Positions 14,497 through 29,320 of a stretch of 43,299 nucleotides of DNA are shown here, in pieces. Below the pieces are notes generated by a model. It worked only from the letters and a program-made list of their open reading frames with translations. It did not search any database and had not been told where the DNA came from. Position 1 is the stretch's first letter. Each line of letters starts with the position of its first letter. The translations under genes were made by a program, and so were the position numbers. Source of the stretch: a virus (Duplodnaviria > Heunggongvirae > Uroviricota > Caudoviricetes); IMG/VR virus record IMGVR_UViG_2703718838_000011, one strand, 5' to 3'.

Positions 14497-15363
14497 TCAG
14501 GCTCCTGTTTTTTCAAGTAAGTTTTTGAACGCAGCGTCAGGAGGACACACCTCATCAGCCAGTCCAATTTCAACGCCATCAGCAGCCATAAAACAGGCGG
14601 CCTGGGTACTTTTTATAACCTTTGCGCTAATCCCCCGGTTTCTGGCAACAGTGTTCACAAACAATTCGCCCATGGTGTTAATGTCCTGCTGGATGGCGGC
14701 CAGCGCTTCATCTGACAACTCTCTCAGCGGCGAACCTTCAGCCTTGCGGGATCCATAGGTGATGATCGTAACTTTAAGACCGTCATCTTTAATCCGCTGC
14801 GTCCAGTCAAGGTGCATGGTGATCACACCCACAGAACCCACTCCGCCGGTGCGCGGAACAGAAATCCGGTCCGCTGCACTGGCAATGGCATACGCAGCGG
14901 AATAAGCGCTTTCCGTCAGAATGGCATGGATAGGCTTTTTCCCCCGGGAGCCGTAAATGACATCAACCAGATCGAAGCATCCAGCGACCTCGCCGCCAGG
15001 TGAGTCGATATCCAGGCAAATGCCCGAAATGTCGGGATCCTCCATCGCAGTAAGAAACGCCTGACGAATGCCGTCATACCCTGTCATTCCACTGTACGGA
15101 CGCAGACTGCCCAGTTTTTGCACCAGCGTTCCGCATATCGGGATGACGGCGACACCCAGCACATTGTCATAACCCGGATCACTACGGGATTCACGTCCCC
15201 GGTTATCGTCATATCCGTACCAGTCATCCTCCATGGCAAGAGAAGATTCGATTTTACTGATACCAAATCGGTCCATTACGGATGCCATGATGACTTCGGC
15301 TTTACTCGGGTGCAGCGCCAGCGGGGTGTTAAATAATCGCTGGGCCAGATGGGGTAGATTCAC
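14497..15363 (-). CDS. head maturation protease, S49 peptidase family (gpC-like)
   Basis: 288-aa ORF downstream of portal; ClpP/SppA-like sequence features. Confidence 0.8.
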   Translation of the reverse strand: MNLPHLAQRLFNTPLALHPSKAEVIMASVMDRFGISKIESSLAMEDDWYGYDDNRGRESRSDPGYDNVLGVAVIPICGTLVQKLGSLRPYSGMTGYDGIRQAFLTAMEDPDISGICLDIDSPGGEVAGCFDLVDVIYGSRGKKPIHAILTESAYSAAYAIASAADRISVPRTGGVGSVGVITMHLDWTQRIKDDGLKVTIITYGSRKAEGSPLRELSDEALAAIQQDINTMGELFVNTVARNRGISAKVIKSTQAACFMAADGVEIGLADEVCPPDAAFKNLLEKTGA

Positions 15364-23269: not shown

Positions 23270-23550
23270 TAATGCCTCAGCGTATCAACGAGACGCGCCA
23301 CATTCCCACGAGCCCATAACACGGCAGCGCAAATAAGAAGGTTTACGATGACCACCATCCAGTGTGACTCCTGGTAGAGGCCGAACAGATATCGGAATGG
23401 AACGCTGGCATAAACCAGCACAACGAAGTACGCCAGCAATGATATAGCGGGGCGATGTCTTGCCCCTTCACGCTGGTAGAACATCAGGACAAGGACGATG
23501 ACCGCACAAATACCTGCATTCACCATCGCTGACGGATCACTTGTTACCAT
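23269..23550 (-). CDS. holin-like membrane protein (second holin/antiholin candidate)
   Basis: ATG 23550 with SD GGAGG; 93 aa with about three hydrophobic helices. Confidence 0.5.
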   Translation of the reverse strand: MVTSDPSAMVNAGICAVIVLVLMFYQREGARHRPAISLLAYFVVLVYASVPFRYLFGLYQESHWMVVIVNLLICAAVLWARGNVARLVDTLRH

Positions 23551-23932
23551 TGCTGGCCCCTCCTCCACGGAATCGCGAAAGAATACTGAACAGGCTTCCC
23601 AAATCCTGACTGTTGAAAAATGTGAGCACTTTGATTGTCATCGCCGCCACTACAACAGCACCAAGTGCGTCTAATGGTCTGTCACTATACCCGGTAGCCT
23701 GTGACAGCTTTGAACCCACCAGTCCAGCGGCAAGAACGCCAACAATGAATGACGTCATGAAGTAAGCAATCAATCGTACTCGTGTGATATTTGCCGCTGT
23801 CGCTACATAAAATACTGCACCAGCGAATGCGCCAAATACCACGCCATAATCAATACCGGTTGCAAGACCAAATACGCTGGCTCCCATCAGGCCACCAGCC
23901 GCGACCGTAGTGCCAGAAACAGGATCGGACAT
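23537..23932 (-). CDS. holin
   Basis: 131 aa, several TM helices, first gene of lysis cassette, SD GAGGGGG. Confidence 0.6.
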   Translation of the reverse strand: MSDPVSGTTVAAGGLMGASVFGLATGIDYGVVFGAFAGAVFYVATAANITRVRLIAYFMTSFIVGVLAAGLVGSKLSQATGYSDRPLDALGAVVVAAMTIKVLTFFNSQDLGSLFSILSRFRGGGASNGNK

Positions 23933-23976: not shown

Positions 23977-24002
23977 ATAAAAAAGGCCACCCGAAGGTGG
24001 CC
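23977..24002 (-). terminator. rho-independent terminator (minus strand) between protease cassette and lysis genes
   Basis: Stem GGCCACC/GGTGGCC (23985-23991/23996-24002), loop CGAA, followed on the minus strand by UUUUUUAUU. Confidence 0.7.
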
Positions 24003-24026
24003 TTATGTGATTCGAGGATATATCGT

Positions 24027-24926
24027 TTAGCGAATATTCCACATCATCGTGCTGCCATTATGATTTTCAATAATTTTCGCAGCAGGACTCGTACCAAATG
24101 AATGCATGTAGCAATGATGTATAGTCAGCACAAGATCCTGCAGAGTTTGGTCGCTCTCCAGCTCCATAATGTTCAAACCAATGCTTTGCGCTTTATCCAG
24201 ATGAATATGTCTAGCATGCGCATAGGTTGTATGATGATTGTTTAGCTCATCACAAATTCGCTTAGCCTTATCTTGAGCGTTAGCATGACCTGCAAACATA
24301 CCAGTACACAGCCATTTTTGTACTATTTCATTAGCCCAAACAATAGCCTTTTCACATTCACCAATGAGAGTCGGGTTTAGCTTTTGAAGAGTAAATTGCC
24401 ACCATTGGATCGCTGCAGCATTTTCAGAAATCTCTTTCTTAGCTCGCTCATACTCTTCTATGATCGCATGAGATGATAAACCACCAAGCTGCGGATCAAT
24501 TGGCCCCAAATTTGACTGTTTGCCCAATACAATCTGTTCGGCACAGCAAGCCAACATGGTCCCACAACTCATTGAGATCATAGGAACAATTGCCCGGATA
24601 TTGGTCCCAAATTTTGAACGAAGATAATGACCAATAGATTCCAATGCTGCAATATCTCCCCCTGGGGTATGAAGCAAGATATCCAGCCCTAATGACGTGT
24701 CTAAGCCGTTAATGGCTGACATAAGACCATTTTTATCGTCATCTGACATTTGTATTAAATGCTGCAACCCAGGCCCCCCCTTCTGGAGGAAGCCTGAGTA
24801 ATATGAAATTACGTTTCGGCCTGTATGCTTCGACAACTCTCGTAAGTACTTGTGGCGAACCTCATCCGCTGGTGTACGTTGAGCAATAGTACCCATCTCG
24901 CCCAACACGTCTATCCAATTTGGCAT
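24027..24926 (-). CDS. SDH-family Clp-fold serine protease (ClpP/SppA-like)
   Basis: 299-aa ORF; segment LLHTPGGDIAALESIGHYLRSKFG...PMISMSCGTMLACCAEQ resembles the serine dehydrogenase proteinase family; family assignment from memory. Confidence 0.55.
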   Translation of the reverse strand: MPNWIDVLGEMGTIAQRTPADEVRHKYLRELSKHTGRNVISYYSGFLQKGGPGLQHLIQMSDDDKNGLMSAINGLDTSLGLDILLHTPGGDIAALESIGHYLRSKFGTNIRAIVPMISMSCGTMLACCAEQIVLGKQSNLGPIDPQLGGLSSHAIIEEYERAKKEISENAAAIQWWQFTLQKLNPTLIGECEKAIVWANEIVQKWLCTGMFAGHANAQDKAKRICDELNNHHTTYAHARHIHLDKAQSIGLNIMELESDQTLQDLVLTIHHCYMHSFGTSPAAKIIENHNGSTMMWNIR

Positions 24927-24938
24927 GTTCTTCTTTTA

Positions 24939-25139
24939 TCAATATGAGTACAGTTGATGAGATTGTTGCTCTACAGCTTCAACTGAACTTACAGTGCTGT
25001 AGGAGTATAGAACACCACTACGTATAGCCTGGTCGTCTTGCTGAGCAAGAACGCGCATAGCATAGTGTTGTACAGATTCACCTTTATGGAGTTCCTCTGA
25101 TTTAATACCTACTTTTTCGTAAAATTCTGCAGCGCCCAT
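24939..25139 (-). CDS. hypothetical small protein, first gene of late-operon cargo cassette
   Basis: 66-aa ORF, ATG 25139 with SD GAGGGA; stop 12 nt before protease start. Confidence 0.45.
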   Translation of the reverse strand: MGAAEFYEKVGIKSEELHKGESVQHYAMRVLAQQDDQAIRSGVLYSYSTVSSVEAVEQQSHQLYSY

Positions 25140-25227
25140 GATTTTGTCCCTCGTTATAGCTACATCTAGCTCAAAAACAAAACAACAAACACAAGATGTA
25201 GTGATTTACGGTCTTTAAATACACGAA

Positions 25228-25246
25228 AAGCCTCAAAACGAGGCTT
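25228..25246 (-). terminator. candidate tR'-like terminator downstream of late promoter
   Basis: Stem AAGCCTC/GAGGCTT with 5-nt loop; minus-strand downstream sequence UUCGUGUAUUU is only moderately U-rich. Confidence 0.35.
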
Positions 25247-25278
25247 TAAAAGAGTCTTTTTGATAAAGAACTAAACAG

Positions 25279-25308
25279 ACTATAGCGAGTCAATTACAGA
25301 TTTGACAA
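25279..25308 (-). promoter_or_regulatory. candidate Q-dependent late promoter (PR'-like)
   Basis: Minus-strand TTGTCA (25308-25303), 18-nt spacer, TATAGT (25284-25279), between Q and the first late gene. Confidence 0.35.
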
Positions 25309-25412
25309 GTAAAAAAGGGATTAAAAGCTCATAAAAACGGCTTTTTTGGATTATTCATCATCTTTTTTGATGCACGTAACAATCCAAATATAAAAACAAA
25401 GTTTCGACAAAA

Positions 25413-25432
25413 AACCCGCTCGATGGCGGGTT
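25413..25432 (-). terminator. hairpin terminator immediately downstream of Q
   Basis: Stem AACCCGC/GCGGGTT with 6-nt loop, flanked by A-run on plus and U-run on minus transcript. Confidence 0.4.
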
Positions 25433-25497
25433 CTTAATTCTTTGTCGACCTACGAAGCTATGGCGACGATATCAGATTTACATGAAATATATGCGTT

Positions 25498-26187
25498 TCA
25501 ATCCAGTTTTGCAAGACTTGAGTCTAAATTTGTCGCCTTTTGTTGTGAACGTGATCGCGTAACCTGCAATAAAGCCCCGCTATCCAGTCGCAGGAAGATG
25601 CTGCGCATCTCAACCCAGCGGTCAGTAAAGGTCTCTGACCAGTTTTTTGGCGTTACGCCAACCAGCGACGCCAGCGCCTGATATTCGTACATCTCACGCC
25701 CTGCCAGCTCTGCTTTCACGTCCTGAGCCGCGAGCCAGACAAGCTTCTTCAGGCGCTCCATCGTTTTGCCGGCCACCTTCTTCGCGCCGAGCTGCTCCCG
25801 GAACTCTGCCCACGCCCATTGAGTGATTTCCACCTGATAGCACCAGCGCACGTTCTCGCTATAGTTCCATAGCAGCCACGCTTTCTGGTGTTCTTCGAGT
25901 GACATCAGTGCGCGGCGCCACGATGCGCTGGAGTATTCAACCGGCTGCACCAGGGGAATATGCGAACCCTTGGCATGCGACTGCTTGCCCGGTATTGGCG
26001 GGTTATCCAGCGTAATCATTTCCCCGGTCACTTCATCCAGCACTCGAGGCTTTTTACGTTTAAACGTTCCCGTATCGAACTGCGCGTTTTCAAGCCACGC
26101 CATCAACTGCCCTTTCGTCGCACCACTTAAATCGGCGGTGGCCACCATCAACTGCTGGCGCACGTATTCGAGAAATTGAGTATTCAT
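25498..26187 (-). CDS. late-gene antiterminator Q
   Basis: 229-aa ORF between nin genes and the late/lysis region; start overlaps ylcG-like stop (ATGA). Confidence 0.65.
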   Translation of the reverse strand: MNTQFLEYVRQQLMVATADLSGATKGQLMAWLENAQFDTGTFKRKKPRVLDEVTGEMITLDNPPIPGKQSHAKGSHIPLVQPVEYSSASWRRALMSLEEHQKAWLLWNYSENVRWCYQVEITQWAWAEFREQLGAKKVAGKTMERLKKLVWLAAQDVKAELAGREMYEYQALASLVGVTPKNWSETFTDRWVEMRSIFLRLDSGALLQVTRSRSQQKATNLDSSLAKLD

Positions 26188-29228: not shown

Positions 29229-29320
29229 GGAGGGTTGGCCGAGTGGTTGATGGCACCTCACTGATAATGAGGCGTACGGGCTATAAACCCGTACCGCGGG
29301 TTCGAACCCCGCACCCTATT
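29229..29320 (+). tRNA. tRNA-like gene with class II (long variable arm) fold; anticodon loop CUGAUAA gives anticodon GAU if folded canonically; acceptor stem imperfect
   Basis: Hand fold: acceptor GGAGGGT/ACCCTAT (one mismatch, one G-U), D-arm GCC-GAGTGGTTGAT-GGC, anticodon stem CCTCA/TGAGG, variable arm with 7-bp stem GTACGGG/CCCGTAC, T-arm GCGGG-TTCGAAC-CCCGC; no encoded CCA. Confidence 0.45.

Follow-up and report, generated by a model that had tools for sequence, protein, structure and literature searches.

A putative moron pairing a ClpP-fold serine protease with a small partner protein ahead of the lysis genes of an Escherichia coli lambdoid prophage

Introduction

In Shiga toxin (Stx) phages, the slot between the late promoter PR' and the lysis genes carries stx. 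In the prophage considered here, the equivalent slot is occupied by a gene for a predicted serine protease of 299 amino acids and an open reading frame (ORF) of 66 amino acids, and the question that the locus raises is what such a pair does there. The window, meaning the whole stretch of 43,299 nucleotides that was analysed (IMG/VR record IMGVR_UViG_2703718838_000011, Caudoviricetes), is an Escherichia coli lambdoid prophage, 100% identical across the region to several RefSeq chromosomes, e.g. NZ_CP104681, in which the integration site adjoins kch. The question has three parts: (i) whether the two ORFs are genes that belong together, (ii) which transcription signals they carry with them, (iii) what function the pair may serve.

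Taken together, the sequence and its relatives are best explained by a self-contained cassette of two genes, or moron, that is horizontally mobile and lies between the Q-dependent late promoter and terminator on one side and the lysis genes on the other. The gene family itself is already annotated: in thousands of genomes the protease is labelled only ‘SDH family Clp fold serine proteinase’ or ‘S49 peptidase’, and its neighbour is usually a ‘hypothetical protein’ or an ORF that was not called at all. The conserved module of two genes, including the signature of the partner and a leader that belongs to the module, appears undescribed. A literature search found no description of the cassette, of the conserved mini-protein partner or of the cassette in the prophage of E. 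coli Nissle 1917, and no published biochemistry or biology for this PF01972 subfamily.

A two-gene cassette in the Stx-equivalent slot

The order on the minus strand is Q, a 358-bp intergenic region, the 66-amino-acid ORF, the 299-amino-acid ORF, a strong terminator-like hairpin, two holin genes and the gene of a GH19 endolysin, with 12 nt separating the two ORFs. The pair is located 3' of Q, PR' and its terminator tR', 5' of the holin gene and on the same strand, i.e. in the Stx-equivalent slot. This is the position that the initial annotation had assigned to it, and the co-oriented genes, hairpins, promoter match and holin start at 23932 that it listed are all present, with coordinates that check out. 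Both ORFs are real genes as judged by their matches to phrog families and, for the small ORF, also by a dN/dS (the ratio of nonsynonymous to synonymous substitution rates) of 0.11–0.36 wherever dS was measurable, a sign of purifying selection. Features of a moron are visible in the drop in GC content (0.35–0.46 in the cassette, 0.51–0.60 in the flanks), in a terminator at the end and in the presence or absence of the cassette among related phages. A conserved match to the promoter consensus (P2), followed by a terminator, is a candidate for the promoter of the unit.

The cassette resembles known morons located between PR' and the lysis genes, such as stx in Stx phages or gogA and tRNA-Arg in Gifsy-1, in its slot, its foreign GC content, its own terminator and its expected co-induction by Q. 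It differs from them in that the cargo is a pair built around an apparently cytoplasmic protease instead of a secreted toxin, and in that it is also found outside phages in many phyla.

Pairing of the small protein with the protease across phyla

The search for a partner clustered all ORFs near the protease in 97 loci. Same-strand ORFs of ∼63 amino acids abut the protease at 19 diverse loci, mostly upstream of it and, in several Lachnospiraceae-type and other metagenome-assembled genomes, downstream instead. A profile made from these small ORFs found matches at 26 loci among 2912 candidate ORFs, every one of them abutting the protease and on the same strand. A small ORF in the same orientation precedes the protease at 73 of 84 loci, compared with 38% for control genes. 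About 85 loci, from many phyla and one methanogen, were compared; in most of them the protease gene is directly adjoined by an ORF of 55–80 amino acids that has the two motifs described below at a fixed distance, and the gap between the two genes ranges from −37 to +20 bp. By this comparison, the two genes keep their pairing, their order and their tight spacing from phylum to phylum. There is no conserved third gene: the 148 flanking ORFs matched 177 Pfam families, each of them at most three times.

Motif sampling over the abutting ORFs yielded an N-terminal 10-mer, I-[EQ]-[ED]-x-[FY]-[KE]-x-[FLM]-G-[IL], which scores at least 12 bits (leave-one-out) in 62% of the partners and in none of the 1347 decoy ORFs. 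The other motif, h-x-[YLT]-S-[NDS]-x-[TS], is beta-strand-like. It follows the first at a median distance of 27 residues (interquartile range 24.5–28.5), ∼8 residues short of the C-terminus, and reaches 9 bits or more in 56% of partners and 1.5% of decoys. In a shorter notation the two read I-x-x-x-[FY]-x-x-h-G-[IL] and h-x-[YL]-S-x-x-[ST]. The partner in the window has AAEFYEKVGI at residues 3–12, an internal GVLYSYST and a C-terminal LYSY-COOH. A length of 66–69 amino acids is kept in nine enteric versions and one Aeromonas version, and all enteric and Aeromonas partners have the invariant ending [LM]-Y-[ST]-Y-COOH, in which the internal Y-S motif recurs. The partner evolves fast, in contrast with the highly conserved enzyme.

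Searched directly, the 66-amino-acid protein has the look of an enterobacterial orphan, with only four close clusters. A profile of 62 partner sequences likewise matched only five proteins in 5.8 billion, because the small ORFs are mostly uncalled or fall under the E-value threshold at that database size. A search (hmmsearch) with the hidden Markov model of the widespread partner family did not match the enteric type, so that their relatedness rests on the shared motifs, the fixed spacing, synteny and an hhalign comparison of the two families (probability 70%, E 4e-5). The enteric and widespread partners are likely to be homologous, with sequence alone falling short of proof. The statistics of abutting ORFs and motifs give strong comparative support to the proposal, made already in the initial annotation, that the protease has the small protein as its dedicated partner; this partner belongs to the family as a whole and is no peculiarity of the window.

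Two points favour a peptide-maturation reading, in which the mini-protein is a precursor cut at the Tyr-Ser motif and a signal or effector peptide is freed at cell lysis: the candidate cleavage motif is conserved and fixed in position close to the C-terminus, and the phage cassettes are placed for expression immediately ahead of the lysis genes. Such maturation is very improbable: no signal peptide on the partner, and no export signal, was seen when the sequences were inspected, the residues on either side of the motif lack the conservation expected of a mature peptide, the neighbourhood has no conserved gene for a receptor or a modification enzyme, and many copies are found outside phages.

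The small ORF was also considered as a leader peptide, a reading dismissed on its dN/dS below 1 and its conserved length and motifs. The aromatic-x-aromatic carboxy-terminus of the partners recalls C-terminal peptides that insert into other proteases or activate them, which is pure analogy. Two metagenomic proteins (P0234 and P0207) are apparent in-frame fusions of a partner-type N-terminus, with both motifs, to the protease; both lack their C-terminal end, and they may be artefacts of assembly or gene calling. In Gordonia phage BeeGee (L019), an unannotated small ORF ending in SHVRYSTSATR is located directly upstream of gp31 at 6001, adjoining the gene of the protease homologue. Annotation seems to have overlooked the partner gene in many records.

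The protease

The 299-amino-acid protein scores 76.6 bits against PF01972 (SDH_protease), above the gathering threshold of 31.3, with residues 22–253 aligned to positions 35–244 of the 286 in the profile. The equivalog cutoff of the NCBIfam model NF047768 (Clp_like_SDH) is missed, at 91.3 bits against 250. The RefSeq name of the cassette gene is that of NF047768 despite this sub-cutoff score, which, being so far under the cutoff, marks the protease as a distinct subfamily. It is like the SDH-type ClpP-like proteinases of these two models in passing the gathering score, in the ClpP/crotonase fold (an alpha/beta core with an oxyanion GG motif) and in the order Ser-Asp-His, and differs from them by its NF047768 score.

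The predicted catalytic residues S120, D144 (in GPxDPQ) and H237 are invariant in 87 of 87 relatives, as are the HTPGG oxyanion motif, H270 and H271, with H237 contributed by the C-terminal part of the protein. A profile search of the PDB returned only remote matches, to ClpP and NfeD, with Ser120 aligned with the ClpP nucleophile, and an AlphaFold2 (AF2) model from an alignment of 26 sequences has a pLDDT (predicted local distance difference test) of 89.3. On these grounds the initial assignment as an SDH-family Clp-fold protease holds, and the enzyme is almost certainly catalytically active. Neither a signal peptide nor a membrane segment was evident on inspection of the sequence by eye, and the protease appears cytoplasmic.

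The family is large but compact. At E≤1e-5, 7862 of 8000 scored candidates were retained, and 326 clusters at 50% identity were obtained at E≤1e-30. At about 50% identity there are at least 556 genomic loci, in nearly every sampled bacterial phylum and in one methanogen.

The position of the gene in the slot of stx, and a fold that is common to phage prohead proteases (the cassette protease has weak matches to phrog_53 and NF045542, the phage prohead protease fold), give some colour to a reading as an Stx-like virulence factor of lysogenic conversion or as a redundant head-maturation protease. Both were dismissed and are barely credible. The prophage has its own head protease at 14497–15363, an S49 enzyme (PF01343) encoded between the portal and capsid genes. 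BLASTP found no significant similarity between the two, the cargo protease has no PF01343 match, and its gene is located between Q and holin, not between portal and capsid; the initial claim that the two are separate stands. In general, the S49 and ClpP-type prohead proteases have their fold and GG oxyanion motif in common with the cassette protease, whereas the latter belongs to another Pfam family and its homologues were never seen beside portal or capsid genes as a maturation protease. A secreted, Stx-like toxin, one form of the lysogenic-conversion factor that had been proposed, is unlikely in view of the apparently cytoplasmic enzyme, the lack of a visible signal peptide and the spread of the module in environmental bacteria of many phyla and an archaeon.

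Promoters, terminators and leader RNA

Across the 5-kb region, the counts of consensus promoters and terminators equal those expected after shuffling, so that the individual sites rest on conservation in homologous cassettes and not on the scan. The features are collected in Table 1.

Table 1. Features of the cassette and its flanks in the window
Feature	Coordinates	Strand	Basis
Antiterminator Q, upstream flank outside the cassette	25498..26187	-	PF06323 1e-101; phrog_304
Putative late promoter, leader and tR'	25410..25514	-	promoter/terminator scan; Rfam RF01393
Cassette-borne promoter-like P2, TTGTCA-18-TATAGT	25279..25308	-	10/12 consensus match
Putative leader terminator/attenuator T2, AAAGCCTC-GTTT-GAGGCTTT and T-rich tail	25227..25247	-	terminator scan, conservation
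Conserved hairpin/inverted repeat CTACATCT-N26-AGATGTAG	25160..25201	-	between T2 and the ribosome-binding site of the small ORF
Partner ORF, 66 amino acids	24939..25139	-	phrog_25714 7e-30
SDH-type ClpP-fold serine protease ORF, 299 amino acids	24027..24926	-	PF01972; phrog_11747 9e-127
Putative intrinsic terminator T3 at the cassette end	23983..24004	-	9-bp stem, 6 GC, then TTTTATT
Holin, first lysis gene, downstream flank	23537..23932	-	PF16931 2e-39; phrog_198

Directly after Q, a promoter-like sequence P1 (TTGCAA-17-TATATT, 25514–25486 on the minus strand) overlaps the end of the gene. It precedes an isrJ-type short RNA at 25482–25410 on the same strand (Rfam RF01393, 58.7 bits against a gathering threshold of 37, E 8.5e-10, positions 1–75 of the 75 in the model), which ends in the intrinsic terminator T1 (25432–25413, minus strand). 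The isrJ-type unit is directly 3' of Q in phage CobraSix, whose Q is 65% identical, and farther downstream of Q in Gifsy-1, past an intervening ORF; after the unit, both phages diverge to other cargo, namely tRNAs and gogA. In Gifsy-1, IsrJ and IsrK are short terminated transcripts 3' of antQ (PMC4825925), and in Stx phages the PR' leader is the small RNA (sRNA) StxS (PMC7547250). By analogy, isrJ and isrK are the counterparts of the StxS leader, a short terminated PR' leader preceding the cargo in either case. The unit at 25410–25514 is probably the true PR'/tR' of the prophage, with a terminated leader. At the isrJ site, 25410–25482, isrK also matches weakly (22.7 bits).

The initial annotation had taken 25228–25308 as PR'/tR', which is probably wrong. 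The full-length isrJ-type unit abuts Q and is common to phages with other cargo, whereas the 25227–25308 unit travels with the cassette: it is ∼85–90% identical in the Nissle prophage, whose Q is only 31% identical to that of the window, and its hairpins persist in loci that have no Q. P2 is the best promoter match of the region and is conserved in the cassettes of Nissle, of two further loci (L007 and L008) and of Mangrovibacter, with a Yersinia equivalent of TTGCAA-18-TATATT. T2 is kept, with altered stem sequences, in all nine aligned enteric cassettes, including the Q-less Proteus and Klebsiella loci. The hairpin between T2 and the small ORF is likewise found in nine of nine, with compensatory and wobble changes (one stem position is CG, GC, GU or AU), and may be either an RNA element or a protein operator. 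T3 has a counterpart between protease and holin in the Yersinia prophage. Folded as a single RNA, the leader is no more stable than shuffled sequence (z −0.79), so that its hairpins are supported by conservation only. A comparison of the P2–T2 leader with 50,697 phage records, also at blastn sensitivity, gave no match.

With the candidate promoter P2, T2, the hairpin and T3, the cassette would have what a separate, attenuated transcription unit requires. The full layout reads Q, P1, the isrJ-type leader with T1, then the cassette (P2, T2, hairpin, partner, protease, T3) and the holin gene, with promoter and terminator activities that are predicted. The promoter map of this class of prophage is corrected accordingly by the likely PR'/tR' at the isrJ-type unit and by a second leader that belongs to the cassette. 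A Q-modified polymerase would pass all three terminators, and therefore late co-induction of the cassette is still to be expected.

Genomic settings and distribution

The slot between Q and holin is also used in the prophage of E. coli Nissle 1917, a probiotic strain, and in prophages of Yersinia and Serratia, and in an Aeromonas Mu-like prophage the cassette is located in the analogous slot between Mor and the endolysin gene. The four lambdoid lineages have two types of PF06323 Q (31% identical) plus a PF06530 Q, and four holin families. In a Shewanella Mu-like phage, a protease homologue without a recognisable partner is located between the late regulator C and the lysis genes.

In the Nissle prophage (L001, 4501–5895), the cassette is followed by an ORF of 63 amino acids that is winged-helix-like (weak PF17782) and by a DNA methyltransferase gene before the holin, which are extra cargo of the slot. 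In the Mu-like prophage of Aeromonas hydrophila (L103, 5784–6578), a TIR_2-domain gene on the opposite strand is located just upstream of Mor, near the module, and may be a defence gene belonging to one variable region with it.

The reuse of an activator-to-lysis slot in four lambdoid lineages with three kinds of Q and four holin families, the analogous post-Mor position in Aeromonas, the Shewanella homologue after C and the expected reading of T1 to T3 by Q-modified polymerase are consistent with a late helper of the lytic cycle. Made as late transcription sets in, the protease would break down proteins of the host (defence effectors, proteases or regulators) or adjust lysis or assembly, with the mini-protein as timer or adaptor. 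Such a helper is the main rival to the conflict module discussed below and is rather unlikely: the slot between Q and lysis genes is a general cargo hotspot, as the tRNAs and gogA of CobraSix and Gifsy-1 illustrate, and other settings are different. Most of the ∼80 genomic loci have no phage genes among the nearest neighbours. The Pseudomonas copy is at a prophage end, beside the integrase gene, the Proteus copy at a prophage edge after the tail fibres and the Klebsiella copy after the tape-measure gene; the edge copies (beside integrase, after tail fibres) are on their own transcription unit. Porphyromonas phages have the module beside HicAB, Gordonia phage BeeGee has it between tail genes and integrase, and Methylomonas has it in an integrative island; another site is beside a YafQ toxin–antitoxin pair and Fic genes. 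Among 50,697 phage records, seven have the module, and they are of three types (a Mu-like transposable phage, prophage-derived Porphyromonas genomes and an integrase-carrying Gordonia phage); no obviously virulent phage is among the carriers.

Within a species the cassette is patchy, with 28 of 5426 complete E. coli genomes (0.5%) carrying it. This patchiness, the repeated carriage by prophages and islands, the foreign GC content and a partner that evolves very fast beside a highly conserved enzyme are points against a cellular module outside any conflict, i.e. a small protease for regulation or quality control that would have its cognate substrate or adaptor and hitch-hike on mobile elements, on the pattern of the NfeD–stomatin operons. 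Such a module is improbable.

One of the cassettes, near-identical to that of the window, is on a 42.9-kb non-mobilisable ‘plasmid’ of Enterobacter asburiae (H49, NZ_CP083847.1), which may be a phage-plasmid or a circularised prophage; its protease is 92% identical, in four BLAST pieces that suggest frameshifts.

Possible function and mechanism

The most likely role of the pair, at rather less than an even chance, is that of a conflict module: a defence, abortive-infection or addiction-like system borne by prophages and islands. It fits better than a housekeeping role because carriage is patchy and by temperate phages and islands, the partner is fast-evolving beside a conserved enzyme, and the architecture is toxin–antitoxin-like. 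The cassette is like toxin–antitoxin and abortive-infection modules in having the small gene first, tight coupling, autonomy, patchiness and prophage or island sites, at times with YafQ, HicAB or Fic genes as neighbours. It is unlike them in having no homology to a known toxin or antitoxin and no match in PADLOC, and in being nearly absent from plasmids; only the architecture is compatible. A bolder and more tentative version, which we regard as somewhat unlikely, makes the pair a previously unrecognised, phylum-spanning two-component immune or abortive-infection system, in which a decoy or inhibitor peptide that evolves fast and detects invaders would hold the protease in a latent state.

Several observations weigh against a conflict module. 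Neither protein matched PADLOC-DB v2, even at E≤1, and a literature search found no experiment or report tying PF01972 proteins to defence or toxicity. Defence genes near the loci are few (restriction–modification in a few, BREX in one), and enrichment is not established. Only four of 72,556 plasmid records carry the module, unlike classical addiction toxin–antitoxin systems. The AF2 model of the partner alone (six sequences) is of low confidence, with a pLDDT of 59.8, and is uninformative. That the cassette is found time and again directly behind late activators is explained at least equally well by a role in the lytic growth of the phage itself.

Membrane-bound relatives of the fold offer precedents for how a partner might engage such an enzyme. 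In Pyrococcus, the NfeD (STOPP) protease 1510-N cuts its operon partner stomatin (PH1510/PH1511), and SppA holds its own C-terminus in the active site (PDB 4kwb). NfeD and SppA are membrane proteins with Ser-Lys dyads, and their partner is an SPFH/stomatin protein or their own tail, not a soluble protein of 60 residues; to our knowledge, these systems are not typical cargo of mobile elements. The mode proposed for the cassette would run parallel to both: the N-terminal helix of the partner would bind the protease and anchor the mini-protein, and the Tyr-Ser motif would be offered to the active-site groove as a substrate or a product-mimicking inhibitor. The carboxy-terminal Y-[ST]-Y of the enteric and Aeromonas partners may occupy the groove in the same way. 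The protease would thereby be held in check, or fed, by its partner.

If the pair is such a conflict module, temperate phages would carry it as an immune pair in the late-operon slot and at prophage ends. In the lysogen, expression of the cassette from P2 would be low and attenuated, limited by T2. Upon induction, Q-modified polymerase starting from the isrJ-type PR' would pass T1, T2 and T3, giving strong expression of the cassette just before the holin. In the conflict reading, the protease, once freed from its partner, would cut proteins of the host or of the invader.

The mobile and apparently obligate pair, the two-motif signature of its partner and its placement at the head of the late operon turn an anonymous annotation into a defined, testable system. 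If the role is defence or abortive infection, a protease-based mechanism with a peptide regulator would join the bacterial immune repertoire; if it is in the lytic cycle, the cassette would encode a rare dedicated, late-expressed cytoplasmic protease.

Other features of the window

Elsewhere in the prophage, ARAGORN called a 92-nt tRNA-Ile (gat) at 29229–29320 on the plus strand, opposite to the surrounding early genes; its length and orientation are odd, and the call may be a false positive.

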